From the NCBI GenBank assembly GCA_964649615.1, contig CAZYPW010000008.1:574-64573 (forward strand): a stretch of 64,000 nt of DNA, read 5' to 3'. Source of the stretch: an uncultured Gammaproteobacteria bacterium (lineage in GTDB: Bacteria > Patescibacteriota > Microgenomatia > Daviesbacterales > UBA10151). A model generated the notes under the pieces. It saw nothing but the letters and a program-made list of their open reading frames with translations. It ran no database searches and was not told the origin of the DNA. The translations under genes and the position numbers were made by a program. The number at the start of each line of letters is the position of its first letter. The stretch's first letter is position 1. This document shows positions 1 to 14,389 of this stretch, piece by piece.

Positions 1-1673
1 GGCCCATCCAAAATAACCCTGGAGTCGACCATTGATGAAACATTGAAAGCAATTCTGCAGGGAATATTAGCTTTAATTAAACCAGTAATCACATCAACAG
101 AAGGCCTCTGGGTAGCCACCACCAAATGAATGCCTGTAGCCCTGGCAAGTTGGGCAATTCTAGTGATAGCATCCTCAATCTCAACCGGAGCAAACATCAT
201 CAAATCTGCCAGTTCATCCACAATAATCACAATATAAGGCAGGGCCTGAAAACCTGACATTTCATTATATCCACTGATATTTCTGACTCCCACAGATTGG
301 AATAACTTATATCTTCTTTCCATCTCAGCCATGGCCCACTTTAGGGCAGATAAAATCTTTTCTGGTTCAGTAATCACTGGAGTTAATAAATGAGGAATGC
401 CGTTGTAATTTGTTAACTCCACCCTTTTGGGATCAATCAAGATCAATTTTAATTCATCTGGTGAATTCCTAAACAGCAGTGAACCAATGACTGCATTAAG
501 CATGACTGATTTTCCACTCCCCGTGGTTCCCGCAATTAAACAGTGGGGCATCTTATCTATATCCACAATCAAAGGCTTGGAGGCAGTATCTCGCCCCAAT
601 GTAACAGCCAGTTTAGATTTATGCTTACTCATCTCTTCTGATTCTAAAATACCTTTAAGCCCTACTACTTCCAAAGACCTATTAGGCACTTCAATTCCCA
701 CCAGTGATTTGCCTGGAATTGGAGCCTCAATCCTGACAGTTCCAGTAGGGGTGGCTAGCGCCAGGGCAATATCATGCTGCAAATTAGCAATTTTAGAAAT
801 TTTAGTGCCTGCAGCAATTTCTAAGGCATATTGGGTTACAGCTGGACCGCCATTTACCTCAGCCACTCTGGCTTGTATGCCAAAAGAATCTAGGGTTTTT
901 TCAATCACATTGGCATTTTTCTTAACATCTCCCCGCTCTGCTGCAGAACCAACTTTATCAGATAATAATCCTAAGTTGGGATATTTCCAAACTTTAGTTT
1001 GGCCAGCCACATTTTGCACTAGCGTATCAGCAATAATAGTTTCCTTAGGTGCAACTGGGCTGGATTTGACCACAGCTTTTTCTTCCATTCCTGAAACTTT
1101 GATTTTGATGGGGGCATGTTTTATTTCAAAGGAGTCTCTTCTTTTAAATGAAGAAAACAGGGGAGAGAAGATTTGATTTTTTAAAAAATTAAAGAAAAAA
1201 CCAAAAATGGCAAAAATTTGAGAAAGTGAAGCATTAAATAAAACAACCAGTCCTACTAAAAAAACCATTACTAAGACAGCCATTGCCCCAATAGGAGTTA
1301 AAAATAAGGCCAGTTGCTCCCAAAGAGTTTGTCCTATGCTGCCTGCTTTCTCAAAAGAAACAGCAGCTGTGATACCCACAAGGGCTAAAATAATTAAAAT
1401 AAAACCTAGTAACACATTAGTTTGGGCTAGTCTCCATCTAAATCTTGATAAGACTAAGCCTGATAAAGCAAATAAAACAGGGGTAAAAAGATAAGCCCAA
1501 CCCATTAAAGAATAGGTAAATTCTTTCCAAAAAGATAAAACTTGAGAATTTGTGGCTAAAGAGACAGCAGAAATAATTGCCAAAATAAAGGAGACCAGTG
1601 AGCCAACAGCAATAATGGTTCTTTGTTTTAATTTCAACCTGGGGAGCTTATAAATAGATCTTCTGCGGGACAT
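1..1673 (-). CDS. ftsK: FtsK/SpoIIIE DNA translocase, 3'-partial (C-terminus lies beyond the window start)
   Basis: The minus-strand translation starts at 1673. It shows about four N-terminal TM helices, then a motor domain with the Walker A motif LIAGTTGSGKS (around 500-540) and IVDELADLM-like downstream motifs. It is absent from the ORF track because the reading frame runs off the window edge. Confidence 0.75.
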   Translation of the reverse strand, partial: MSRRRSIYKLPRLKLKQRTIIAVGSLVSFILAIISAVSLATNSQVLSFWKEFTYSLMGWAYLFTPVLFALSGLVLSRFRWRLAQTNVLLGFILIILALVGITAAVSFEKAGSIGQTLWEQLALFLTPIGAMAVLVMVFLVGLVVLFNASLSQIFAIFGFFFNFLKNQIFSPLFSSFKRRDSFEIKHAPIKIKVSGMEEKAVVKSSPVAPKETIIADTLVQNVAGQTKVWKYPNLGLLSDKVGSAAERGDVKKNANVIEKTLDSFGIQARVAEVNGGPAVTQYALEIAAGTKISKIANLQHDIALALATPTGTVRIEAPIPGKSLVGIEVPNRSLEVVGLKGILESEEMSKHKSKLAVTLGRDTASKPLIVDIDKMPHCLIAGTTGSGKSVMLNAVIGSLLFRNSPDELKLILIDPKRVELTNYNGIPHLLTPVITEPEKILSALKWAMAEMERRYKLFQSVGVRNISGYNEMSGFQALPYIVIIVDELADLMMFAPVEIEDAITRIAQLARATGIHLVVATQRPSVDVITGLIKANIPCRIAFNVSSMVDSRVILDG

Positions 1674-1704
1674 ATTAAATATTATACCATAAAACTATGG
1701 GTCA

Positions 1705-3396
1705 TTATGACTCAACAATGATCGGTAATACTAGCGGCCTCCTTTCTGTAGTTTGATAAAAAAATTTCTCTAAACAATCCTCTATTAGTTTTCTTAAAAA
1801 TCTCCAGTCTGTAATTTTGTGGGCATGTTTGTCTAAAGTTTCCTTTAAAATGGTTTTTGCTTCATCTAGTATCTCTCCTGCTGTCTCTTCATAAACAAAC
1901 CCCCTGGAAATAATATCAGGCTCTGCTGTTAATTTGCCAGTGTGGGGATCAATTTCTAAAACAGCAATCACAATCCCTTCCTCATTCATCTTCTGCCTAT
2001 CCCTCAATACCACATTGCCTACATCTCCAATTCCTAATCCATCCACATAGACATTTTGCACATCCAAAATTTCCCCTAATTTAATATTTTCTTTTTCTAG
2101 TGCCATGGTCTGCCCATCTTCTACTACTAAGACATGACTGCGCTGATATCCCATATCCTGGGACATCTTGGAAAAAACTCTCATATGTTTAAAAGTACCG
2201 CCTATGGGCAATAAATACTTTGGTTTAATCAAATTGATCATCAGCCTTAACTCCTCTTTGGCTGCGTGCCCAGAGACATGCAAATCTGAGGTAACAGCTG
2301 AATAATAAACATTTACCCCCAGCCTGGTTAAAGAATCAATTAAAGCATTTTGGGCAGATTCAGTGGAGGGAATAGGATCTGCTGAAAATAAGACTGCATC
2401 TCCTTCTTTTAATTTAATCTGTTTATGCTCCTCATTAGCTGCCCGGGATAGGGCAGAACCAGATTGGCCCTGGGATCCAGCAATAAGCACTAAGATTTTT
2501 TTAGGGGAATGACCTGCTATGGCCTCTGGAGTAATTACCAGCTGAGAGGGTATTCTCAAATACCCTAAATCCCGGGATATTTGAAAATTACTTTCAAAAG
2601 AACGCCCTGCTACTGCAATCTTCCTGCCAGTTTTTAAAGCCACATTGACAGCTTGCTGCATTCTGGAAACATTAGATGAAGTCATAGTGATTAACAGTTT
2701 GCCTTCAGTTTCCAAAGAGGCTTTTTCAAAAGTATCCTCAATAGATTTTTCTGATTTATTAAAGCCTTCCTTTTCTACTCTTAAGCAATCTAGCAGCAGT
2801 AAATCTACCCCTTCTTTGCCTAATCTGGCTACCTCTCCCACATCTGTCACCTGGCCTGAAACTGGAGTCCAATCAATCTTAAAATCAGCTTGATGAATAA
2901 CTAATCCTGCTGGAGTCTTAAGCACAATTCCGGTTGAATCAGGCACAGAATGGGAAACCTGGTAAAAAGAAACTTGAAACGCTCCTAAAGTAAGTTTTTG
3001 GTCTATTTTTGTTTCCATGATTTTATCTTTAGGTAAGTTGTGTTCGCTAAATTTATTTTTAATAAAAGCACAGGTTAATTTTTGGCTATAGATAGGAACC
3101 TGCAAAGTCGGCCAGATATAGGGAAGGCCCCCAATATGGTCATCATGGCCGTGAGTAATCAAGATTCCCCTAATTTTGTTTATTTTATCTTTTAGATAAG
3201 TAATGTCCGGGATCACCAAATCTACTCCTGGCGTGCCTTCATCTGGAAAACCTACTCCACAATCCACAATCACTATGTCCGAACCATACTCATAAACATA
3301 CATGTTTTTGGTTACATCACCCACCCCTCCTAAAGGAATTATTTTTAAACTCATGTCTTTATCTGATAAAAATTGTTTAGGTTTAAACATTTTCAT
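1705..3396 (-). CDS. rnj: Ribonuclease J (metallo-beta-lactamase/beta-CASP RNase)
   Basis: The HGHDDHIGG motif and overall beta-lactamase/beta-CASP architecture support the call. The track ORF begins at a TTG at 3414. A more likely start is the ATG at 3396 (MKMFKPK) or at 3354 (MSLKIIPLGG, the typical RNase J N-terminus). Confidence 0.85.
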   Translation of the reverse strand: MKMFKPKQFLSDKDMSLKIIPLGGVGDVTKNMYVYEYGSDIVIVDCGVGFPDEGTPGVDLVIPDITYLKDKINKIRGILITHGHDDHIGGLPYIWPTLQVPIYSQKLTCAFIKNKFSEHNLPKDKIMETKIDQKLTLGAFQVSFYQVSHSVPDSTGIVLKTPAGLVIHQADFKIDWTPVSGQVTDVGEVARLGKEGVDLLLLDCLRVEKEGFNKSEKSIEDTFEKASLETEGKLLITMTSSNVSRMQQAVNVALKTGRKIAVAGRSFESNFQISRDLGYLRIPSQLVITPEAIAGHSPKKILVLIAGSQGQSGSALSRAANEEHKQIKLKEGDAVLFSADPIPSTESAQNALIDSLTRLGVNVYYSAVTSDLHVSGHAAKEELRLMINLIKPKYLLPIGGTFKHMRVFSKMSQDMGYQRSHVLVVEDGQTMALEKENIKLGEILDVQNVYVDGLGIGDVGNVVLRDRQKMNEEGIVIAVLEIDPHTGKLTAEPDIISRGFVYEETAGEILDEAKTILKETLDKHAHKITDWRFLRKLIEDCLEKFFYQTTERRPLVLPIIVES

Positions 3397-3420
3397 AATA
3401 ATCTCAAAACTCAAATGTCA

Positions 3421-3500
3421 AAAGTCAAAACTACAATTAAAAACTTAAAAGTTTTAAGATTTAAGTTTCAGATTTGAGCTTTGAGTTTTGCGGTTTGAGT
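3421..3500. repeat. Imperfect long palindrome built from two inverted 7-nt-periodic arrays (ctcaaaa/gtcaaaa ... ttttaag/atttaag/tttcaga/tttgagc/tttgagt/tttgcgg/tttgagt)
   Basis: Read directly from the sequence between the Lon-like gene end and the rnj start. It is centred on aaaacttaaaagtttt. It belongs to the same heptamer family seen at 57814-57862. Confidence 0.5.
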
Positions 3501-4520
3501 TTATCCAGATAAGTATTCTCCCAAATTAGTAATTTCTATCTTAAATGGCCCTTTTTCCCCTTCCACCAACTTTCTGGCCACCTTTCTGCAAATTCCCTGC
3601 AAAGTTCTCTGCAAAGACCTAATCCCGCCGTCAAATCCTAAGGGCCTGATAATTTGCGGCCAGATGGTCTCATCTATTTTTAGCATACTTCTATCAATTC
3701 CTGCTTCATCCATCGCTTTGGGCAAAAGATAATTTTTGCCTATCACTACCTTTTCCTCATCAGAGTATGAAGGCATTTGAATAGGCTCCAACCGATCCAT
3801 CACAGCCGTGGCTATATTGGTAGTATTATTGGCTGTGGCAATGAATAATACCTGTGATAGATCATAAGGGAAATCTAAATAATGGTCAACAAAAGAATGA
3901 TTCTGGGCAGGATCCAAAAGTTCAACTAAGACTCCCATAATATCTACTCTATATTCTTGGGCCACTCTATCAATTTCATCAAGTAAAATAACTGGATTGG
4001 AAACTTTGGCAGATTGGAGAGCCTTGATAATTAGTCCTACTTCTACATCAGGCCTGGATCTTGACTGGCCTCGCAAAGTAGCTGGATCTCCCAATCCTCC
4101 AAAAGGAATTCTCACAATAGGCCTACCAAGACTTTCAGCAATAGAATAAGCAATAGAGGTTTTACCAGTACCCACCAAACCAATAAAAGCCAGTATGGGA
4201 GCATGAAAAACAGTGGCATTTTTTTGTTTATGCAAGGTTAAAACAGATAAATATTCTAAAATTCTATCTTTGACTGATTGCAAACCAAAGTGTTCTTTAT
4301 CCAAAATTTGTTTGGCCCTGTTAATATCTAAAATATCCTGGGCATATTTGCCAAAAGGGAGCGATAACACAAAATTAGCATAAGAAACTAGCCTTTCAAA
4401 TTCTATGCCAGTTCCTGGAAATTTTAATAAGTTAAGTAATTTTTCTTCTATCTCACCGGATAAATTAGCTTGGGAAATTTTTACTTTTAATTCTTCAACT
4501 GTTGTTTGGGCAGAATCCAT
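3501..4520 (-). CDS. Lon-like AAA+ ATPase lacking the C-terminal protease domain
   Basis: The ORF aligns to the LonA substrate-recognition and ATPase region. It has Walker A GLVGTGKTS, Walker B ILLDEIDRV and a sensor region ending ...GIRSLQRTLQGICRKV. It stops where the Lon protease domain would begin, with 86 nt of non-coding palindrome following. Confidence 0.6.
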   Translation of the reverse strand: MDSAQTTVEELKVKISQANLSGEIEEKLLNLLKFPGTGIEFERLVSYANFVLSLPFGKYAQDILDINRAKQILDKEHFGLQSVKDRILEYLSVLTLHKQKNATVFHAPILAFIGLVGTGKTSIAYSIAESLGRPIVRIPFGGLGDPATLRGQSRSRPDVEVGLIIKALQSAKVSNPVILLDEIDRVAQEYRVDIMGVLVELLDPAQNHSFVDHYLDFPYDLSQVLFIATANNTTNIATAVMDRLEPIQMPSYSDEEKVVIGKNYLLPKAMDEAGIDRSMLKIDETIWPQIIRPLGFDGGIRSLQRTLQGICRKVARKLVEGEKGPFKIEITNLGEYLSG

Positions 4521-4539
4521 ACTTTAGGATATTTTATCA

Positions 4540-6942
4540 CTAACGGTTATATCCGCCACCGCCTCTTCCTCCACCACGATTCCCGCCTTCGCTAAAACTA
4601 CGACGGGCAGGCCTATCAAATCCACCAGACCTTCCGCCAAATCCTCCACTGCTTCTTCTCTCTCCTCCAAAACCACTCCTTGAGCTAGTTCTTCCTCCAC
4701 TTCTTTGGAATCCACCACCAAACCGTGGCCTGGATGAATCTCCAAAAGAAGAACGGGGCCTGAAGCCACCGCTGGAACGGAACCTGTCCGCTTCGCCAGC
4801 CTCGCGTCTAGGCGGGCCAGAGCGAAAACGAGGCGAGCCTTCTGATTGCGGCTTCATATCTGATCCAAAAAGCATAGACAAACCAACTTTTCCATCTGGA
4901 GAAACATCTGTAACTCTAACTTTCACAATTTGGCCTTCAGATACAACATCCTCTGGTTTTTCAACATGACCAGGAGCCATTTGAGAAATATGTACTAATC
5001 CATCTTTTCCAGGAGTAATTTCCACAAATGCTCCAAAAGCAGCTAGTCTCACCACTTTACCCTCAAACTCATCCCCAATATTAACTTTTTTAAACATAGC
5101 TTCAATCTCTACCATGGCATTTTTGACACTATCCTGACCAACTGCTGAAATCGTCACAGTTCCGTCATCCTCAATATCAATTTGAGCTCCGGTTTTGGCA
5201 ATTAACCCATTAATTGTTTTTCCACCAGTCCCAATCAAAAGTCCAATTTCTGATGGATCAATCTTCATTGTTTCAATTCTTGGAGCATACGGAGACATTG
5301 GTCCAACAGCAGGAATAACCTTATTCATATCTTCCAGGATTGCCAATCTGGCTGCTTTACCTTGTTTTAATGCCTCTTCAATAATCTCAAAAGATAACCC
5401 TTCCAGTTTGGTATCCATTTGGATAGCCGTAATTCCGTTTTTAGTGCCGGCAATCTTAAAATCCATTTCCCCATAAAAATCTTCCACAGCTCTCATGTCT
5501 GTAATAACCTGGAATTTTTTGTCATTGGAGAAAAGCCCCATGGCAATTCCGGCCACCGGTGTAATTAAAGGCACACCGGCATTCAAAAGTGCCAGTGAGG
5601 TAGCACAGACATCAGCCTGGGAAGTGGAAGCGTTGGCAGCTAAAACCTCAGAAACAACTCTGATGGCATAAGGAAAAGTATCCTCTGAAGGGATTACCGG
5701 CAGGATAGCTTTTTCTGCTAAACCTCCGTGTCCCACGTCACGCCTGTTAGGAGAACCTATTCTTTTGACCTCACCGACCGAAAAAGGATTAATGCTCATA
5801 TTGTAATAATGCATAAATCTCTTTTTCCTCTCTCCTTCCATACCGTCCAGAGTTTGCTCTAAAGATGGGGCACCCAGGGTAGCTACAGCTAAGACTTGAG
5901 TGTCACCTCTTTTAAACAAAGCGCTGCCGTGTGTTCTGGGCAGAAGCCCCACTTCCATGCTTAAAGGCCTAATTTCTTCCATGGCCCTGCCGTCTACTCT
6001 TTTTTGCTTTTCCAAAACTGTTTCGTGAACTATCTCCTTGGCCACTTTATCAAATATTCCGGAAATTATTTGGGGAGTTAGTTTGTCAGCATATTGAACT
6101 GCCAATTGTTTTTTGATTAAGTCCCCGGTTGCCTCATGCCATGGATGATCATTGTCAAACAAAGCTGCTTCAATCCTGTCTTTGGTAAGTTTGGTGACCT
6201 CTGTTAATAATGCTTCTTCCAAAGCCTCATCAATATGTGATATTTCCATCTTTACTTTGCCTGCTTCTTTGGTAAATTCTTCTATTAAAGCAATTATTTC
6301 TTGAGACTGTTTATGTGCTTCTTTGATACCGTCAAATACAATTTTGTCATCAACCTGCTTGGCTCCTGTTTCTATCATGACTACTTTCTCGCTACCAGAT
6401 GCCACCAACAGCTCCATATTTAAAGATTCGTATTGATCCATAGTCGGATTAATAATTAAAGTTCCGTCTTTTTCACCAACTCTGACTCCGGCAATAGGCC
6501 CATTCCAGGGAATAGATGAGATGGAAAGTGCAGCTGATGCGCCAATTAAACCCAAAATGTCCGGGTCATTGCTCTGGTCAAAAGATAACACACTCAAAAT
6601 TACCTGAACTTCATTCATCTTAAATTCTTTGGGGAAGAGTGGCCTGATTGATCTATCTATTAGCCTAGCTGTTAAAATAGATTCATCTGTAGGCCTGGCT
6701 TCTCTTTTAATAAATTTAGACGAGGAGATTTTGCCTCCGGCGTAATGTTTTTCAACATACTCAACAGACAAAGGAAAGTATCCTATATCTTCTTTTAAGG
6801 ATTGAGTCGCCACAGTTGCCAAAACAACTGTTTCACCCCAAGTTAGAAGAACAGATGCATCAGCCTGTTGGGCAAGACGCCCAGTTTCCAGTACTAATTT
6901 TCTACCATTTAAATCTATTTCTTTTTTTACTATTTTGTTCAT
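4540..6942 (-). CDS. pnp: Polynucleotide phosphorylase with a roughly 100-aa Arg/Gly/Ser-rich (RGG-like) C-terminal extension
   Basis: Two RNase PH domains, a KH domain (GKTINGLIAKTGAQIDIEDDG) and an S1 domain are present. The tail reads RFRSGPPRREAGE...GGRGGGGYNR. rpsO lies upstream, the classic rpsO-pnp arrangement. Confidence 0.9.
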   Translation of the reverse strand: MNKIVKKEIDLNGRKLVLETGRLAQQADASVLLTWGETVVLATVATQSLKEDIGYFPLSVEYVEKHYAGGKISSSKFIKREARPTDESILTARLIDRSIRPLFPKEFKMNEVQVILSVLSFDQSNDPDILGLIGASAALSISSIPWNGPIAGVRVGEKDGTLIINPTMDQYESLNMELLVASGSEKVVMIETGAKQVDDKIVFDGIKEAHKQSQEIIALIEEFTKEAGKVKMEISHIDEALEEALLTEVTKLTKDRIEAALFDNDHPWHEATGDLIKKQLAVQYADKLTPQIISGIFDKVAKEIVHETVLEKQKRVDGRAMEEIRPLSMEVGLLPRTHGSALFKRGDTQVLAVATLGAPSLEQTLDGMEGERKKRFMHYYNMSINPFSVGEVKRIGSPNRRDVGHGGLAEKAILPVIPSEDTFPYAIRVVSEVLAANASTSQADVCATSLALLNAGVPLITPVAGIAMGLFSNDKKFQVITDMRAVEDFYGEMDFKIAGTKNGITAIQMDTKLEGLSFEIIEEALKQGKAARLAILEDMNKVIPAVGPMSPYAPRIETMKIDPSEIGLLIGTGGKTINGLIAKTGAQIDIEDDGTVTISAVGQDSVKNAMVEIEAMFKKVNIGDEFEGKVVRLAAFGAFVEITPGKDGLVHISQMAPGHVEKPEDVVSEGQIVKVRVTDVSPDGKVGLSMLFGSDMKPQSEGSPRFRSGPPRREAGEADRFRSSGGFRPRSSFGDSSRPRFGGGFQRSGGRTSSRSGFGGERRSSGGFGGRSGGFDRPARRSFSEGGNRGGGRGGGGYNR

Positions 6943-7109
6943 AATATTTTGTCATTCCGCACTTAATGCGGAATCTATACAAATATTGTTTTTGGAATTT
7001 GGAAACTGTAGAAAAGGTAATTAGCTTTTTGCTAACTAACTCTTTGCAATCCCCAAACTCCTGATAATTATTTATGAATCCCTGATCAAGCCAGGGATGA
7101 CACTACGTG
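6943..7109 (-). promoter_or_regulatory. rpsO-pnp intergenic leader with three hairpins
   Basis: Seen in sequence: atccctg-N7-cagggat, then gacac-tac-gtgtc just after the rpsO stop; and attccgca-cttaa-tgcggaat just before the pnp start. This resembles the processed/attenuating pnp leader of other bacteria. Confidence 0.4.
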
Positions 7110-7379
7110 TCACTTTGATAATCCTAACTTATCTATCACTATTGTATATCTTTCGTTATCTTTTTTAAACAAATACTGCAGCAGTCTTCTTCTTTTGTTC
7201 ACCATAGATAAAAGTCCGCGCCTTGAATGAACATCATGAGTGTGCTCTTTTAAGTGCGCAGTTAAATTTTTAACCTGCTCAGTCAGAAGTGCAACCTGGA
7301 CTTCAGGAGAACCTGTATCGCCAGACTTGGTAGCAAATTCCTTAATGATTTTCTGCTTTATCTTTGGGTCTAATGGCAT
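7110..7379 (-). CDS. rpsO: 30S ribosomal protein S15
   Basis: The 89-aa product has the S15 signature ...[39 protein letters not shown]... and sits immediately upstream of pnp. Confidence 0.9.
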
Positions 7380-7421
7380 CTAAACCTTTCTTGGGAAAAC
7401 ATTGGTGCCATAAAAGTAATC

Positions 7422-7470
7422 CCTAAATTAATTTAGGGGTATTCTAACAGAAATAAACAAAATATGCAAG
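7422..7470 (-). promoter_or_regulatory. Putative rpsO promoter plus leader palindrome
   Basis: On the minus strand a -35 TTGCAT (7465-7470) is followed by a 17-nt spacer and a -10 TAGAAT (7442-7447). An 18-bp perfect palindrome ccctaaattaatttaggg (7422-7439) overlaps the predicted TSS. An SD AAAGG precedes the ATG. Confidence 0.45.
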
Positions 7471-7480
7471 GGTGGCTTGT

Positions 7481-8326
7481 TTAAGAACGGAATTTCTTGA
7501 AGTAAAGATAAACGCCTGCTCCAAACAGCAGTGGCAGGACTACCCATATCCAATTTCTAATATCGATACCTTTTTTTGGTTGAACCTGGTCATCAGAGGT
7601 TGATACAGCTTTTACTTCTCCCTCCAATCTTTCTTCACCAATACCCACATTTCCCTGTGTATCTTCATTGGTTGTTGCTCCTAAAACTCCTGGGGCAAAT
7701 CCTGCTGCAGGAGGAGATACTCCCAAAACTGAATTTTACGGTACAAGTTTTGGGATCTTCTATTCCATCAGATGTCCAAGTAGTTCCGTCAACAGATCTA
7801 ACTACGTTTAAAGTTTGCCCATTAAGAGCTGTTCCAACATAGATATTTAAAGTAATAGGTGTGGAAAATGTCAACCCAATGTTGGGTATTCCCCACTGCA
7901 TTGCTCCATCTGCCACCACTCCTGTCCCCAAACCGGTTAAAGAGCTGGTCGAAACATCAGATGAGGTGAGGGCGCTGGCATCTAAATTTGTGCCGTCTGT
8001 TTTGGTAATAACAGTACATAAGTTTGGTTTAATACTACATTATTAATAGTGGTGGAAAATCCATCCTCATTAGTTTGCCATACAGGCGGGGCAAGAGAGA
8101 CGCTGCTTTGGTTTTCGGTGGAAGTAGTATCAATTACTGCTGACTGCGTGGCTGGCGGAGTAGTTAAATTCTGATCTACCACAGTTTCAGGAGTTGGCTC
8201 TGGTAATGGGGAAGATTCCAGTGTGGCTTCTGCTGTCTGTTCCTGTTCAGCAGACGGAGTAGCTTCCTGGGCGTAAACAGGGAAGGCTGCTGCTAAAGGG
8301 GTTAGAGAATTAAATAATAAGGACAA
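7481..8326 (-). pseudogene. Frameshift-disrupted gene for a secreted, membrane-anchored surface protein
   Basis: Three consecutive minus-strand ORFs (7982-8326, 7665-7931, 7481-7726) sit in different frames and read as one protein. It has an N-terminal signal peptide (MSLLFNSLTPLAAAFPVYAQE), a Pro/Thr-rich linker, a Thr/Gly-rich domain and a C-terminal TM helix with a KKFRS tail. The frame switches fall near homopolymer runs at about 7990-8040 and 7725-7760. Confidence 0.4.
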
Positions 8327-8411
8327 AGCAGCAACAGCTGAAATTATTTTTTTCTGAACTTATTCACAAGGGTAACTTCCTTATGCACTCTATAGCTACG
8401 AATTGTCAAAT

Positions 8412-9449
8412 TTAACCCAAAGAAGAGCCTTTAAAGATTTTTGGGGTCAGCCATTCTGGTTCCACTGTTTCAGAAACAACTCCTTCAGCTGATGGCCTTT
8501 CTTCAGGAGAAGGCTGGGTGCTGTGGTCATCACCCACATCAACATATCTTGAAGCAGCTGACGGGACAACTGGAGGCACAGTAAATGAGCTATCCTGGTC
8601 TGAAGGTGTAGATTGAGGCATCAAAGCAGACCAGTCAAAATTTGGTTTACCCTGAGCGGAGTCAAAGGACCCGCCTAGACTTACGCTAGTCGAGGCTGGT
8701 TTTTTGCCTCCTACCCGTAAACAATTAGCCACAGCCATGTAAGTTTCAGCTGTCACTTTATCTCCTGTTAAATTTAAGGTGGCTGCAAAGATGCCGACCA
8801 AAAGGTTAGAAGCAGCATCAGCATCTAAACTAAACCCTAAATCAGAGATTAAATTTACTAACATCTCAGATAAGGATGAAACATTGGCATCTAAAACATT
8901 AGTTTGGCCAAAGCTGGTATTAGCAGATTGAGTATCTACATTAACAATATGTGTACCAGAAAAAGCCTGTTGATTGCCCTGATAAATATTTCCTAAAGCA
9001 TTTAAATTAACTGCACCTATTACAAAAATTAAATTAAAGCCACTGCCTTGATAATGGGACACAATCCTGGCTGGCTGGAAAGTCTGATTAGGCAAAACAT
9101 GGAAGACTAAATTTAAATTATTATTTTCTGCTGCCCAATCCAATTTTTCCAAAGCTGGAATAGTGTTATCAGAAGCAGCCACTCCTTCTAAAGTAATAGT
9201 CAGATTTCCACCATCAGTTTTAGGAAGGCTTTTTTGGACATGGTCTACTCCAAAAAGATGGCCTGAAGAAACTTTAATATCATCATCAGAAACTATAGAA
9301 ACCTGTTTGCCAAGTGATTCTAAAACTAAAAATAAAGCTAAAGCAGCTGCCATTTTATCTATATCCGCATCTTTTGGAATGGCAATTAGAATTGATTTGG
9401 CAGTTGGCAGTAAATTCTTAAGTTCCACAATTTGTGAATCGTATTTCAT
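8412..9449 (-). CDS. DHH/DHHA1-family phosphoesterase-like protein (NrnA/CnpB-like, catalytic motifs possibly degenerate) with a disordered C-terminal tail
   Basis: The N-terminal DHH-like region reads ILIAIPKDADIDKMAAALAL...VSDDD...GVDHV. Its position directly downstream of infB matches where a DHH phosphoesterase follows rbfA in actinobacteria. Confidence 0.45.
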   Translation of the reverse strand: MKYDSQIVELKNLLPTAKSILIAIPKDADIDKMAAALALFLVLESLGKQVSIVSDDDIKVSSGHLFGVDHVQKSLPKTDGGNLTITLEGVAASDNTIPALEKLDWAAENNNLNLVFHVLPNQTFQPARIVSHYQGSGFNLIFVIGAVNLNALGNIYQGNQQAFSGTHIVNVDTQSANTSFGQTNVLDANVSSLSEMLVNLISDLGFSLDADAASNLLVGIFAATLNLTGDKVTAETYMAVANCLRVGGKKPASTSVSLGGSFDSAQGKPNFDWSALMPQSTPSDQDSSFTVPPVVPSAASRYVDVGDDHSTQPSPEERPSAEGVVSETVEPEWLTPKIFKGSSLG

Positions 9450-9503
9450 TGATTGAGGCAGTTATGCTTGAAATTTTACCTTAATATCCCATAATAGTCA
9501 AGC

Positions 9504-10958
9504 TTATATTACTCTAAAACTTTCAACTACATCATTTACTGTAAAATCAACTGGAGGATCAAACAGCATGCCGCAATCGTTTCCTTTTTCCGCCTTATTA
9601 ACTTCTTCTTTAACCTTTTTTAAAGACTTTAGCTTGGTTTCCCCAATCTTTACTCCATCCCTTAAAATCCTTAATTTATGGCCTTTGGCAAGCTCACCTT
9701 CTATTACCCTGCATCCTGCAATCTTTTCTGTCTTGCCATGGGGAAACTGGGCAATAATATTAGCTTTACCTATTACCTCCTCAAGCTGCCCAACCTCAAG
9801 CAGAGTTTGGACCACATCTTCAATCTCTTCTATTAATTCATAAATAATATTGTAAGTTCTGATTAAAATATGGTCATTCTCAGCAATTTTTTGGGCAGAA
9901 GTAGTTACTTTGACATTAAAACCTACTACAATTGCTCCTACTGATGAGGCTAATCTAATATTATCCTCTCCAATATCTCCTATCCCGCTAAAGATAAAAT
10001 CAACTACTTTTCTTTCTTCATTAAATTTCTCTAAAGAAGCTTGTATTGCCTCTAGCGAACCCTGTTTATCTGCTTTAATAATGACCTTCAAGGTTTTACT
10101 ATCTCCTTGTTTTAACTTGTCCACCATACTTGATACTTGATACTTGATACTTGATACATCTCCTGGCTCTTCTCCTAATTTTGCTCCCACCAATGGCACT
10201 GCTTCCAATCCCAGTATTTCCACAGGAGTAGATGGTCCAGCCTGATCAACTGCTTTACTATTAAAATCAAACATTCCCCTAATCTTTCCTTTAATGCCTC
10301 CTAGTTGAATCTGATCCCCTTTCTTTAGTGTTCCATTTCTAATTAAAATTGTGGCAATTGGGCCTTTAAATTTATCTAATGTTGCCTCAATTACTACCCC
10401 AGCCACAGGAGCTTGTGGATCAGCTTTAATCTCATTTAGTTCAGCAACTAAAGTAACCATCTCTAAAAGCTTATCTACTCCCTCACCAGTTTTGGCAGAA
10501 AGAGGCACCAATGGCACATCTCCCCCATATTCTTCTGCTAAAATTTCCCTATCAGATAGTTGTTTTTTAATTTTCTCTAGCTGCACTTTGACATTCACAC
10601 CAGCTAGATCTACTTTGTTTATTGCCACAATTAAAGGAACTTTCGCTTCTTTAATGTGCTTGATAGCCTCATCTGTTTGAGGCATAATTCCATCATCTAC
10701 AGCCACCACCAAAACAGCTATATCAGCTACCTTGGCTCCCCTGGATCTCATTTTTTCAAAAGCAGCGTGTCCCGGGGTATCTATGAAAGTGATTAATTTA
10801 CCATCATGGGTAACTTGATATGCCCCAATATGTTGGGTAATGCCGCCATGTTCTTTGGTTGCCACGGAAGATTTGCGGATAAAATCTAATAGCGTAGTCT
10901 TGCCATGGTCAACATGGCCCAGGATCGTGACTATGGGAGGTCTAGTAACTTGGCTCAT
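9504..10958 (-). CDS. infB: Translation initiation factor IF-2, minimal form that starts at the G domain
   Basis: The GHVDHGKTTLLD and DTPGH motifs are followed by domain II and the C1/C2 domains. At 484 aa it lacks the usual N-terminal extension. Confidence 0.9.
   Translation of the reverse strand: MSQVTRPPIVTILGHVDHGKTTLLDFIRKSSVATKEHGGITQHIGAYQVTHDGKLITFIDTPGHAAFEKMRSRGAKVADIAVLVVAVDDGIMPQTDEAIKHIKEAKVPLIVAINKVDLAGVNVKVQLEKIKKQLSDREILAEEYGGDVPLVPLSAKTGEGVDKLLEMVTLVAELNEIKADPQAPVAGVVIEATLDKFKGPIATILIRNGTLKKGDQIQLGGIKGKIRGMFDFNSKAVDQAGPSTPVEILGLEAVPLVGAKLGEEPGDVSSIKYQVSSMVDKLKQGDSKTLKVIIKADKQGSLEAIQASLEKFNEERKVVDFIFSGIGDIGEDNIRLASSVGAIVVGFNVKVTTSAQKIAENDHILIRTYNIIYELIEEIEDVVQTLLEVGQLEEVIGKANIIAQFPHGKTEKIAGCRVIEGELAKGHKLRILRDGVKIGETKLKSLKKVKEEVNKAEKGNDCGMLFDPPVDFTVNDVVESFRVI
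10129..10156. repeat. (TTGATAC)x4 heptamer tandem array inside infB coding sequence
   Basis: Seen in sequence. It is read in frame on the coding strand as ...DVSSIKYQVSSM... Confidence 0.7.
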
Positions 10959-10994
10959 ACTTAATTCTTTTTACTCCTTTCAATTAAATGAGAA

Positions 10995-11081
10995 AGTATT
11001 AAGTATCAAGTAGTAAGTATTATGGGAAATAATAAATTTAAATCTTTCATACCCTTAATACATAATACTTAATACATACTA
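10995..11081. repeat. Inverted pair of heptamer arrays in the nusA-infB intergenic region
   Basis: agtatta/agtatca/agtagta/agtatta (10995-11022) faces cttaata/cataata/cttaata/catacta (11054-11081). Together they can fold as a long imperfect hairpin. Confidence 0.5.
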
Positions 11082-12263
11082 CTCATTCTTATCTTTTTCC
11101 ATATCAGCTTCTGCAGGTAAGGTTTTGGTATCATCTGCAGGTTTAGTTCCAGCTTGTGGTTCTTCCTTTTTTTCTCCAGTTCCCTCAGTTTTCACTTCAC
11201 CTTCACTTTTTACAGCTTCCTCTGCTTTTTTCCCAGCTACTTGCTGCTCACTACCTGCTACTGACTCCTCTTCTGCTCCAACAATATCAATCTTCCAGCC
11301 TGTTAATTTAGCAGCTAAACGAACATTTTGCCCTCCCTTGCCTATAGCCAAAGACATCTGATCTTGAGGAACAGTCACTGTGGCAATTTTGTCAGTTTCA
11401 TTCAAACTCACTTGTAAATCTTTAGCTGGTGACAGGGCTGCAGCAATAAACCTGGCAGGATCATCTGAATAGGTAATAATATCTATTTTTTCCTCACCCA
11501 ACTCAGACATCACAGCCTGAACTCTGACCCCTTTTTGGCCCACCAAAGATCCCACAGGATCTACTCCTTCTTGAGATGATTGAGCTGCAATTTTAGTCCT
11601 GGAGCCTACTTCTCTGGCAATGGCCCGCACCTCAACTGCCCCATTTTGAATTTCTGGCACCTCTAGCGCAAAAAGAGCTTTAACTAAAGCAGGATCTGAT
11701 CTGGAAACTACCACTTCAGAACCTCTCCCGCCTTCTCTGATCTCTTTGACTAAAAACTTCAATCTTTGGTTTTGATGATACATTTCTGTATGGACTTGTT
11801 CAGATGGAGGTAAAACTCCTTCAGCCCTGCCTAAATCTACAAAAAAAGTATTGCCTTCTTGCCTTTGGATATTTCCAGAGATAACTGTACCTAATTTGCC
11901 CTCATATTCAGATAAAATTGCCCCTCTTTCTGCTTCATTAAGCCTTTGCATAATCACTTGCTTGGCAATTGAGGCTGCAATTCTGGCAAAGCCAGGGGGG
12001 GTGACATTTTTCTTTTTATCAAAGATCTTAATCTCACCAGTGGCAGGATCTACCTCAGAGGTAAACTCTTCAATATCTTCAGGCACTACTTCATTTCTAA
12101 GCATTAAATCTTTTTTGTAGGCAGCTAAAGCTGCTGCTTTGATTGCTTCTGTCACCACTGATGGGTCTACCCCTTTTTCAGAGGCTATTTGATTTAATGC
12201 AGCTGCAAATTCTGTTCGTGCTTGTGCCAATCGGAGCGCCCCTTTCTTTGGCGCGAAATCCAC
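11079..12263 (-). CDS. nusA: Transcription termination/antitermination factor NusA with a K/E-rich C-terminal tail
   Basis: The NusA N-terminal domain, S1 domain and two KH domains (e.g. GSLVGQKGVRVQAV, LAIGKGGQNVRLAAKLTGWKIDI) are present. The start codon is a GTG at 12263. Confidence 0.85.
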   Translation of the reverse strand: MDFAPKKGALRLAQARTEFAAALNQIASEKGVDPSVVTEAIKAAALAAYKKDLMLRNEVVPEDIEEFTSEVDPATGEIKIFDKKKNVTPPGFARIAASIAKQVIMQRLNEAERGAILSEYEGKLGTVISGNIQRQEGNTFFVDLGRAEGVLPPSEQVHTEMYHQNQRLKFLVKEIREGGRGSEVVVSRSDPALVKALFALEVPEIQNGAVEVRAIAREVGSRTKIAAQSSQEGVDPVGSLVGQKGVRVQAVMSELGEEKIDIITYSDDPARFIAAALSPAKDLQVSLNETDKIATVTVPQDQMSLAIGKGGQNVRLAAKLTGWKIDIVGAEEESVAGSEQQVAGKKAEEAVKSEGEVKTEGTGEKKEEPQAGTKPADDTKTLPAEADMEKDKNE

Positions 12264-12296
12264 TTGTCAAAAATACGGTTGAGTATTTTTGACAAG
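12263..12296 (-). promoter_or_regulatory. 14-bp perfect-stem hairpin abutting the nusA start codon
   Basis: cttgtcaaaaatac-ggttga-gtatttttgacaag. The last base of the 3' arm is the G of the GTG start. Confidence 0.4.
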
Positions 12297-12315
12297 GGCT
12301 AAAATCCTTTATCTA

Positions 12316-12341
12316 TCAAAAAGGTGGGACTAGCCCACCTT
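12316..12341 (-). terminator. Putative intrinsic terminator downstream of the dnaJ-like gene
   Basis: On the minus strand the stem aaggtggg-ctagt-cccacctt is followed by TTTTT. Confidence 0.5.
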
Positions 12342-12448
12342 CTCAGGTCCTTCGGATTATTAACCACGCTTTAGATAGTGAAACTATCGCAAGCTATGCT
12401 TATTTTAATCCTTTATAAAATTGAAGTCAACCCACCGCTAATTAACTG

Positions 12449-13372
12449 TTAGAACCAGCCTTTTTTCTTGTTGCTTAAATTATAAAGCTCCTCATATAAT
12501 TGTTTTTCCTGTTTAGATGGATTTTGCGGGACATTTAAATTTACCCTCACATAATGGTCTCCATGGCCAGTTTCACCTAATCTAGCTACACCTTTTCCTT
12601 TTAATTTAACCAAGGATCCTGGCTGGGTGCCTGGAGGAACTTTAACCTTCATCTTTCCCTGTACAGTATTAACTTCAAATATATCTCCCAAAACCAATTG
12701 GGGAATGTTAATGGTAATTTCAGAAAATATATCTGCTCCTTCTCTTAAAAATTCCTGATTTCTCTGTACTCCAAAAACAATATCTAAATCACCAAATTTC
12801 ATCTTAGTCCCATTATCAACTCCTGCCGGAACCTTAATCTTTAATCTTTTTCTCTCCAGCCTGCCAGATTGATTTCTGGATTCAATTTCCACCTCTTTTG
12901 TTACCCCTTTTATTGCCTCATCAAAGGATAAATTAAGCTGATAAGTTGGCCTTCTTCTCATTTGAGCTCCAAATCCACCCCCAAATATTTGTTCAAAAAG
13001 ATCAAATGGGTCTTCAAATCCGCCAAAATCGAATTGGACATTAGGGTTACCTCCTGATGAAGACCAGGAGTAAGTTCTAGCCCCACCTCCGAATGGATTA
13101 AACCCTCCTCCTGCAAAAGGATTACCACCATCGCCTCCGGCTCCTCTCTCAAAAGCAGCGTGGCCAAACTGGTCATAAGCACCCTTTTTTTGTGGATCAG
13201 ATAACACCTGATAGGCCTCCCCAAGTTCCTTAAACCTCACATCTGCACCGGCAGATTTATCTATATCAGGATGGTGCTGTCTTGCCAGTTTACGGTAAGC
13301 AGATTTTATTTCTGCCTCAGATGCTCCTTTTTTAACTCCAAGTATTTCGTAGTAATCACGCTTTGTAGCCAT
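12449..13372 (-). CDS. dnaJ: DnaJ-family co-chaperone (J domain, G/F-rich region and C-terminal domains, no Zn-finger; CbpA/type II-like)
   Basis: The J domain reads DYYEILGV...HHPD. A G/F-rich stretch follows and no CxxCxGxG repeats are present. Confidence 0.75.
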
Positions 13373-13386
13373 ATATTCTGCTTGTC

Positions 13387-13416
13387 ATTATAGCAGTCTA
13401 AGCTGAAAAGTGCTAG
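13387..13416 (-). promoter_or_regulatory. CIRCE-like HrcA operator overlapping the -10 TATAAT upstream of dnaJ
   Basis: In minus orientation it reads CTAGCACTT-N9-GACTGCTAT (7/9 and 7/9 against the TTAGCACTC-N9-GAGTGCTAA consensus). TATAAT lies at 13387-13392 and the dnaJ ATG is 14 nt further downstream. Confidence 0.45.
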
Positions 13417-13638
13417 CCTTCTCTAAGTAGCCATCCCAGGGGTGGATTTGTATTGACACCCTCCAGAGGCGGGCAGGCCTGCGGATTTTCCTTAACTTAT
13501 ACGCTCACATCTATTTTAAAATACATTTATGCTACGACCGTATGATAAATGAAAGAATGGAAATTACAAAAAGGGTTAAAACAACCTTTCCAGTTGACTT
13601 TTTAAGCTTAATCTGTTATCCTATAATAACTAAAGATC

Positions 13639-13884
13639 ATGAAAGATAGATTACTAGAAAAATATTATGATTACACTAGAGTTCCTCTTAAAACTACTAA
13701 GGTTGCTCCTGGTGTACCAAGATCAGTTATAAAAATACCTACTGCTACTAGAATATTTATAGATAAAGATAACCCATATATTGGTAAGGATGGTCACGAT
13801 TATTATTCTTTAGAAGCATTACAATCTGCTAATGATTTCTGGAAAAAAGTTCACTTTCCAAAAAGTAGAAGACCTTTGAAGTAA
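13639..13884 (+). CDS. Hypothetical small protein (81 aa), AT-rich, antisense to the chaperone operon
   Basis: This is an ORF call only. Its codon usage (AGA/ATA-rich) differs from neighbouring genes. I recognise no motif. Confidence 0.3.
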   Translation: MKDRLLEKYYDYTRVPLKTTKVAPGVPRSVIKIPTATRIFIDKDNPYIGKDGHDYYSLEALQSANDFWKKVHFPKSRRPLK

Positions 13885-13957
13885 TTATTCTTCTTTCTTT
13901 CCTTGTCCTGAGCTTGCCGAAGGATCTTCCTCCACTACCTCACCTTCAACAGCTTCC

Positions 13958-14389
13958 TCAGTTTTGTTTTTCCAAAAATTCATTAATGTTTCTAACAAAC
14001 TCTCTTAAATCATTCAGCCCAATACTAGCAGACTCGGCTAAGATGTTTAAATCTACATCAAGATACATATGCACCAAAATATTTCTAAGCCCGACAGCTT
14101 TCCCTAATTTTTCTGACAGACCTTTAGTAATAATGCCTTCTTTAACTAATAAGGGAAATAAATCCCTAGCATATTCAGGCATTCCAAGATTTAAACTAGA
14201 AACAATATGTTCTGCTACATTAATAACCATCTCTACGGCAACTTGCATACGATGTTTAGTCGCATCAGTAAAGATTAGATTTTCCTCTTCGTCTAAAGCC
14301 TCCCTAGTAACATGGCTATCCTCAATTATTTTAATTTCTCCTTCCAGGTAACGCAGAATATGATCAATAGTCTTTTTGTTAATAGCCAT
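13958..14389 (-). CDS. hepT: HepT-like HEPN-domain toxin (DUF86)
   Basis: The Rx4-6H HEPN motif GLRNILVHMY is present. It overlaps the upstream MNT gene by 11 nt. Confidence 0.7.
   Translation of the reverse strand: MAINKKTIDHILRYLEGEIKIIEDSHVTREALDEEENLIFTDATKHRMQVAVEMVINVAEHIVSSLNLGMPEYARDLFPLLVKEGIITKGLSEKLGKAVGLRNILVHMYLDVDLNILAESASIGLNDLREFVRNINEFLEKQN

Follow-up and report, generated by a model that had tools for sequence, protein, structure and literature searches.

What does a long arginine- and glycine-rich tail do on polynucleotide phosphorylase (PNPase), and is such a tail a genuine part of the enzyme at all? The question is raised by a 64,000-nucleotide (nt) stretch of DNA from an uncultured bacterium placed by GTDB in the Daviesbacterales of Patescibacteriota (contig CAZYPW010000008.1, positions 574 to 64,573; hereafter the window), in which the pnp gene continues for more than 100 codons past its KH and S1 domains. 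Our analysis indicates that the tail is a genuine and selectively maintained extension of the Daviesbacteria enzyme, predicted to be intrinsically disordered and composed of an acidic linker, a freely varying middle and a conserved RGGRGGFxR-COOH tip; its role is probably, though far from assuredly, to bind RNA. The positions of the features discussed are collected in Table 1.

The protein that carries the tail has everything by which a PNPase is recognized: two RNase PH domains (Pfam RNase_PH twice, E = 9e-54, with RNase_PH_C) and the helical PNPase domain between them, followed by KH_1 and S1, and scores well above the cut-offs of two NCBIfam equivalog models (850 bits vs. 471 for NF008805, whose alignment covers residues 7-690; 840 bits vs. 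525 for TIGR03591). PNPases in the PDB are 40-49% identical to it over residues 1-691, in alignments that run from residue 4 to residue 691 or 697, and none of the PDB PNPases aligned to the window protein covers the tail. In an AlphaFold model built with a 37-sequence alignment, the per-residue confidence (pLDDT) is mostly 85-98 in the core, KH and S1 domains included, and 34-38 at residues 699-800, where the model has no secondary structure; on this basis the tail is predicted to be intrinsically disordered. Canonical PNPases (E. coli Pnp, the Caulobacter crescentus enzyme of PDB 4aim/4am3, and Streptomyces GpsI of PDB 1e3h) share the domain set of the window protein, and their pnp likewise follows rpsO and has a structured leader; what the window protein adds to them is 109 residues of predicted disorder. 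A first-pass annotation, made from the window sequence, had described an RGG/RS-rich tail of about 100 residues after KH and S1. The tail is present and reads as quoted there, and the open reading frame (ORF) and tail lie where they had been placed, except that the tail starts at position 4869 rather than 4850.

Table 1. Features of the pnp region of the window, in order of position
Feature	Position (nt)	Strand	Basis or description
rnj (RNase J)	1705..3414	(-)	Pfam Lactamase_B, RNase_J_b_CASP, RMMBL, RNase_J_C
Stand-alone Lon-type AAA+ gene, 339 aa	3501..4520	(-)	Pfam AAA + Lon_lid
PNPase ORF (pnp)	4540..6942	(-)	800 aa; stop codon 4540-4542
C-terminal tail, residues 692-800 (109 aa)	4543-4869	(-)	ORF translation
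C-terminal tip RGGGRGGGGYNR-COOH, residues 789-800	4543..4578	(-)	di-RGG + aromatic-x-Arg end
Variable R/G/S/F-rich middle, predicted disordered, residues 703-788	4579..4836	(-)	composition, low pLDDT
Second island, encoding PARRSFSEGG	4582..4611	(-)	starts with recurrent motif AGGCCTGCCCG(T/C)
GC-rich island encoding SPRFRSGPPRREAGEA, core of the 68% GC patch	4789..4836	(-)	sporadic insertion in tail
Acidic linker FGSDMKPQSEG, residues 692-702	4837..4869	(-)	family consensus FGADIKPESEGRP
PNPase core, residues 1-691	4870..6942	(-)	Pfam, NCBIfam, PDB alignment, AlphaFold
S1 domain, residues 619-690	4873-5088	(-)	Pfam
KH domain (KH_1), residues 557-614	5101-5274	(-)	Pfam
pnp 5' leader hairpin, ~60 nt, TTTGGGGATTGCAAAGAG...CTTCCACAGTTTCCAAA	6996..7059	(-)	covariation
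rpsO (ribosomal protein S15), upstream of pnp	7110..7379	(-)	Pfam Ribosomal_S15, E = 1e-34

The tail consists of 27.5% glycine, 20.2% arginine, 17.4% serine, 10.1% phenylalanine and 6.4% proline, with 0.9% lysine, and carries a net charge of +14 compared with -22 for the PNPase body. It contains eight RS and two RGG motifs; the two RGG repeats stand together as RGGGRGG (residues 789-795), within the spacing of 0-4 residues that defines RGG regions, and by this sequence definition the tail qualifies as a di-RGG disordered region. The tri-RGG form is absent from the window tail, and the orthologues end in RGGRGG. No other stretch of the 64-kb window reaches 50% R+G over 40 amino acids (aa), and in ~0.94 Mb of related loci RG-rich segments occur in PNPase tails and in one DnaJ G/F region only; there is none in RNase J and none in the Lon-type AAA+ protein, the products of the two genes that follow pnp. 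The likeness to RNA-binding disordered regions of the RGG/GAR (glycine- and arginine-rich) type, which the first-pass annotation had drawn, is matched in composition.

We assessed the conservation of the tail in a scan of one genome per species, which gave 80 loci that share the gene order of the window and whose PNPases are 60-87% identical to the window copy; pnp is complete in 71 of these, and the position-wise analysis comprised 72 tails aligned from both ends. All 71 complete Candidatus Daviesbacteria orthologues have a tail (27-135 aa, median 79), as do 115 of the 120 homologues that rank closest in the database (65-100% identity; lengths 742-831 aa); the other five stop at or just past S1, and three of those are labelled partial. 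A protein identical to the window copy is entered in NCBI for a Candidatus Daviesbacteria bacterium (Patescibacteria, Microgenomates group). Over 5,558 tail codons there is no in-frame stop, compared with 36 stops in frame +1 and 635 in frame +2, and the probability that a 109-codon extension stays open by chance in 36% GC sequence is estimated at ~4e-4. A sequencing frameshift, a missed stop or a chimeric assembly could in principle produce a spurious tail, and the contrast in composition with the rest of the gene is the sole lead in that direction; the tail is, however, found in independent assemblies of 71 species and in more than 100 metagenomic homologues, is written in native codons with unchanged GC at codon position 3, and has conserved ends. 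The orthologues, the stop-free frame and the codon usage therefore lead us to reject an artefactual origin, including the missed frameshift or stop on which the earlier description was to stand or fall, and we place its probability close to nil.

The length and sequence of the tail differ widely between species, a few of which have short and less RG-rich forms, and it is the two ends that are conserved. At the linker, the consensus residues F, G, D, K, P, E, R and P are each present in 61-69 of the 72 tails; for the window positions, the counts are 69 for F692, 69 for G693, 65 for D695, 67 for K697, 62 for P698 and 63 for E701. At the tip, the consensus is RGGRGGF[N/D]R-COOH, with RGGRGGFDR and RGGRGGFNR as the commonest ends: 54 of the 72 tails end in [FYW]xR and 63 in R, and they have F at position -3 in 51 cases, R at -6 in 50, G at -5 in 50 and G at -4 in 47. 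Richer arrays, (GGDRGGSRGGFGG)n, occur in the tails of two relatives (L057 and L060; L numbers are our labels for the related loci).

The tail DNA had been called conspicuously GC-rich, and correctly so: no GC-rich patch of the window is longer than the one within the tail (4751-4840), which has 68% GC vs. 36% for the window. GC at codon position 2 is 0.74 in the tail vs. 0.37 in the body, GC at position 3 is 0.36 vs. 0.32, and the codon choice for Arg, Gly and Pro is the same in tail and body, AGA being dominant for Arg. Given this combination of high GC at the second position with native third positions and codon usage, we conclude that the GC-rich patch is a consequence of a peptide composition rich in R, G, P and A. 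A selected RNA structure in the tail-coding DNA was considered and rejected; set against synonymous-codon shuffles, the minimum free energies of 61 tails average z = -0.09 (p = 0.54). The GC-rich patch of the window folds with z = -0.55 vs. dinucleotide shuffles, the tail contains no tandem DNA repeats, and Rfam has no match in window positions 1-14000.

Could the tail instead be a tolerated low-complexity sink, which grows harmlessly through slippage and through short GC-rich palindromes that insert into it? Its length and sequence turn over very fast, islands within it are common to unrelated genes and intergenic DNA, and 47% of serine codons in the tails are AGY vs. 14% in the body; since AGY is one mutation away from AGR (Arg) and from GGY (Gly), this shift indicates rapid interconversion of R, G and S. 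Such a sink is hard to reconcile with a tail that has been lost in none of 71 species, whose net charge is positive in every species (+5 to +15) and whose linker and tip motifs are kept. Arginine moreover exceeds lysine 13:1 across the tails (21.8% vs. 1.7%), whereas the body has 7.7% lysine and 3.6% arginine; as this excess runs against the mutation pressure of an AT-rich genome (36% GC), we infer selection for arginine itself, and we consider a merely tolerated tail very unlikely.

What the tail is maintained for is suggested by its place and its make-up. PNPase is a homotrimer with its KH and S1 domains arranged around the mouth of the central channel, and RGG/GAR regions are established RNA binders in the proteins that contain them. 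The conserved presence, composition and end motifs, the native codons, the predicted disorder and the attachment directly after the S1 RNA-binding domain lead us to read the tail, with moderate confidence, as an auxiliary, sequence-non-specific RNA-binding arm beside the S1/KH RNA entrance. Each S1 domain of the acidic core (-22 per subunit) would have a tail of about +14 emerging directly from it, and the three could together form a flexible cationic cloud that catches RNA and keeps it at the channel entrance; such capture would raise the local RNA concentration, the affinity and the processivity, and might aid the enzyme with structured substrates.

By analogy, the tail would in its working be most like the Arg-rich segments of RNase E or the eukaryotic GAR domains that stand beside RNA-binding domains. 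The eukaryotic RGG/GAR regions (nucleolin, fibrillarin, FUS, LAF-1, DDX4) and the RG extensions of DEAD-box proteins have in common with the tail the R/G/F composition, RGG/GGF motifs, disorder and adjoining folded RNA-binding domains; the tail differs from them in being bacterial and, in the window copy, di-RGG only, and we know of no arginine methylation system in Daviesbacteria-type bacteria. RNase R, a hydrolytic 3'-to-5' exoribonuclease of the RNB family, has S1 followed by a Lys-rich basic tail implicated in RNA/ribosome binding and stability control; the architecture, S1 and then a basic low-complexity tail, is alike, whereas the window tail is rich in arginine (20.2%) rather than lysine (0.9%). 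The C-terminal scaffold of RNase E (AR-RBD/AR2 in E. coli; AR1, AR4 and REER in P. aeruginosa) likewise places Arg-rich disorder on an mRNA-decay ribonuclease, and its Arg-rich segments are reported RNA binders and condensate modulators (PMC13462270; PMC5758883). However, RNase E is an endonuclease, whereas the enzyme here is a 3' exonuclease; RNase E has a membrane anchor and several motifs that bind partners, compared with a single conserved tip and no predicted helix in the tail; and the tail is Gly/Phe/Ser-rich, whereas the RNase E segments are Arg/Glu/Pro-rich. PNPase is usually cast as the client and RNase E, among others, as the scaffold; an enzyme with its own conserved RGG-type region would mean that the exonuclease can itself bear an auxiliary module for binding RNA or for condensation, in bacteria whose very small genomes make any added module likely to matter. 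Our literature search found nothing on RGG or C-terminal tails of PNPase or on the ribonuclease content of Patescibacteria.

Several observations weigh against an RNA-binding arm. We infer RNA binding by the tail from composition only, and its effect on activity is a further step of the same kind; non-specific RNA binding does not by itself account for the conserved tip, which hints at a specific partner; tails that range from 27 to 135 aa, some of them short and with fewer RG, point to a loose requirement; and a homology search with the tail only returned 2,151 candidates of which none scored, likely owing to low-complexity correction.

The same composition also brings in a second role, which is compatible with RNA binding: Arg/Phe-rich tails, three per trimer, could together with RNA drive the formation of phase-separated RNA-decay bodies resembling bacterial ribonucleoprotein bodies (BR-bodies). 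The phenylalanines of the tails lie mostly in GFG, RFG and GFR contexts and are regularly paired with arginine; together with the richness in G and S and only 0.45% aliphatic residues, this corresponds to the sticker-spacer pattern known from RGG domains of eukaryotes. Bacterial degradosomes offer a precedent, their disordered regions rich in R, K and P being reported drivers of phase separation (PMC13462270; PMC10412687). Composition is the sole basis of this argument, however, and the tails of some species comprise only 27-48 aa; we regard condensate formation as possible but doubtful.

The conserved tip raises another possibility, on which the gene neighbourhood bears. On the minus strand the genes are ordered nusA, infB, a DHH-like gene, two small ORFs, rpsO, pnp, the Lon-type AAA+ gene and rnj. 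The first-pass annotation had placed rnj about 1.1 kb away, and it indeed starts 1,126 nt past the pnp stop and is read from the same strand, a single gene lying between the two; its product scores 538 bits vs. a cut-off of 400 for the NCBIfam RNase J family, and the gene lies downstream of pnp in 68 of the 69 loci with enough downstream sequence. The intervening Lon-type AAA+ gene begins 19 nt past the pnp stop with no terminator-like site between the two in the window, and it is directly 3' of pnp in 60 of the 69 loci; its product matches positions 253-568 of the 795 in the Lon model TIGR00763, is without the N-terminal and protease domains, and has as its best 120 homologues proteins 75-83% identical, all from close Daviesbacteria-like bacteria. 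What the proximity of rnj documents is co-location, and it is no evidence of an interaction; a link of the Lon-type AAA+ protein to PNPase or RNase J is suggested by gene order only.

From this arrangement one might take the tail, and chiefly its RGGRGGFxR-COOH tip, for a scaffold or docking hub that recruits RNase J, the Lon-type AAA+ ATPase, a helicase or the ribosome, so that PNPase takes the organizing role that the C-terminal domain of RNase E has in Proteobacteria; the first-pass annotation had suggested that the tail may substitute for an absent RNase E scaffold. A conserved extreme C-terminal motif after free-running disorder is typical of a short linear docking motif, the order pnp, Lon AAA+, rnj is kept in 60-68 of 69 loci, with the short gap described above, and no RNase E/G is encoded among the gene products scanned in the 64-kb window. 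Yet gene adjacency is no evidence of binding; the tail has one conserved motif beyond the linker, whereas RNase E scaffolds carry several; and there is no sign of an amphipathic membrane-targeting helix, the tail having no predicted helix and almost no aliphatic residues. Basic tails are also found on the PNPases of Planctomycetota, Sumerlaeota and Ehrlichia chaffeensis, and Ehrlichia is a lineage that encodes RNase E; the long basic tails in these groups weaken substitution for RNase E as a general rule. We consider a scaffold unlikely, although docking through the tip, like condensation, would be compatible with an RNA-binding arm. A wider proposal, which we hold to be distinctly improbable, is that the Daviesbacteria PNPase organizes an RNase E-independent RNA-decay assembly from the pnp/Lon AAA+/rnj operon, in which the tail would promote condensation and the tip would dock RNase J, the AAA+ ATPase or a neighbouring PNPase core; if true, RNA decay centred on PNPase and independent of RNase E might operate in many uncultured lineages too.

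Tails on PNPase are not confined to Daviesbacteria. The core (residues 1-691) gave 28,259 matches among 1.8 billion cluster representatives, and we counted tails in the best 143 representatives with an aligned S1 (38-64% identity): 63 (44%) extend at least 30 aa past S1, and of these 55 are net positive, 55 have more R than K and 24 have at least 40% R+G. They include a G/R-rich tail of ~59 aa in a Patescibacteria group bacterium (P0131), a basic tail of ~33 aa in a Candidatus Paceibacterota bacterium (P0124), an RGG/ERGG-rich tail of 91 aa in a Candidatus Sumerlaeota bacterium (P0146), a tail of 336 aa in a Planctomycetota bacterium (P0155) and one of 103 aa ending in KPRFF in Ehrlichia chaffeensis (P0209). 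Among PNPases, then, a basic disordered C-terminal tail is a widespread feature that has probably arisen many times; by sequence, the Daviesbacteria tail is a particularly GAR-like and well-conserved case.

Four distant representatives (P0145, P0154, P0155 and P0211, one of them from a Planctomycetota metagenome-assembled genome) have tails of 228-532 aa with R/D/E/P/S repeats such as ERDERPAAKARDF and RDRD/RSRS runs, and these very long tails resemble the charged disordered domains of the RNase E type. Others (P0200, P0209, P0222, P0227, P0237 and more) have basic-aromatic ends: KKRRFF, KPRFF, KKKRFF, QRRFF, KRFW, GRY or RRY. An aromatic together with a basic residue is present in the last four positions of 22 of the 63 long-tailed representatives vs. 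8 of the 80 with a short tail or none, and a C-terminal basic-aromatic motif may be general to PNPase tails.

Within the variable middle of the window tail lie two islands (Table 1). The SPRFRSGPPRREAGEA island is missing in the closest orthologue (L001, 87% identity) and present in L076 and L022; L031 has the shorter form SPRFRSGQAG, related forms occur in several homologue tails, and the 23-nt string GGCCCGCCTAGACGCGAGGCTGG is found at window 4796-4818 as well as in L022 and L076. The PARRSFSEGG island is common to L017, L022, L026 and L036, and its initial motif, AGGCCTGCCCG(T/C), also lies in intergenic DNA at window 13469-13480 and at nine places in related loci.

Such islands in the tails are encoded by short GC-rich palindromes (16-40 nt), which turn up again in frame within unrelated Daviesbacteria genes and in intergenic DNA: in the L004 tail and at L021:5765-5800, L025:276-305, L003:42-61, L021:45-60, L076:8555-8570, L021:8530-8545, L026:2545-2560 and L001:5931-5946. 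TCCGCCAGCTGGCGGA, which encodes GPPAGG, is found in DnaJ of L021 and in Lon AAA+ of L076 and L021, and a variant stands at the tip of the pnp leader hairpin of L001; GGACCAGCCTCTGGCTGG, the GPASGW part of an AKGGPASGW island, occurs in a PNPase tail and, identical at 18 of 18 positions, in the G/F region of the L025 DnaJ; CCTGCCTGCCGGCAGGCAGG, which encodes LPAGRQ, is shared by PNPase tails and a further ORF of L003; and the tail island PARYASRSEAGG of L004 has 89% identity over 36 nt to a hairpin after rpsO in L021. Perfect GC-rich hairpins are not significantly enriched over controls (2 in the window vs. 0-4; 8 in the loci vs. 5 in Markov controls), so it is the shared sequences that carry the case for palindrome insertion. 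The inserts are missing from DnaJ and Lon AAA+ of the window, and a 12-nt insert is missing in 12 of 15 Lon AAA+ genes; given that orthologues differ in this way, the pattern suggests that the palindromes are small elements, mobile or copy-pasted, which disordered regions tolerate, much like the Rickettsia palindromic elements.

Two observations concern the region upstream of the pnp coding sequence. The initiation factor IF-2 (9504-10958, minus strand) has 484 aa with the GTPase, domain 2, IF-2 and C-terminal domains, and is without the long N-terminal extension that many bacterial IF-2 proteins have. The rpsO-pnp spacer (6943-7109, minus strand) is strongly structured (-61.7 kcal/mol, z = -8.0), and its leader hairpin is found in 44 of 81 sequences (the 80 loci and the window), has no match in Rfam and is usually preceded by a TGnTATAAT-like box, with an apical loop that takes insertions of up to ~70 nt. 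Of the 19 pairs predicted for it by RNAalifold, 11 have compensatory changes, and by analogy the hairpin may be the counterpart of the autoregulatory leader hairpin of E. coli pnp.

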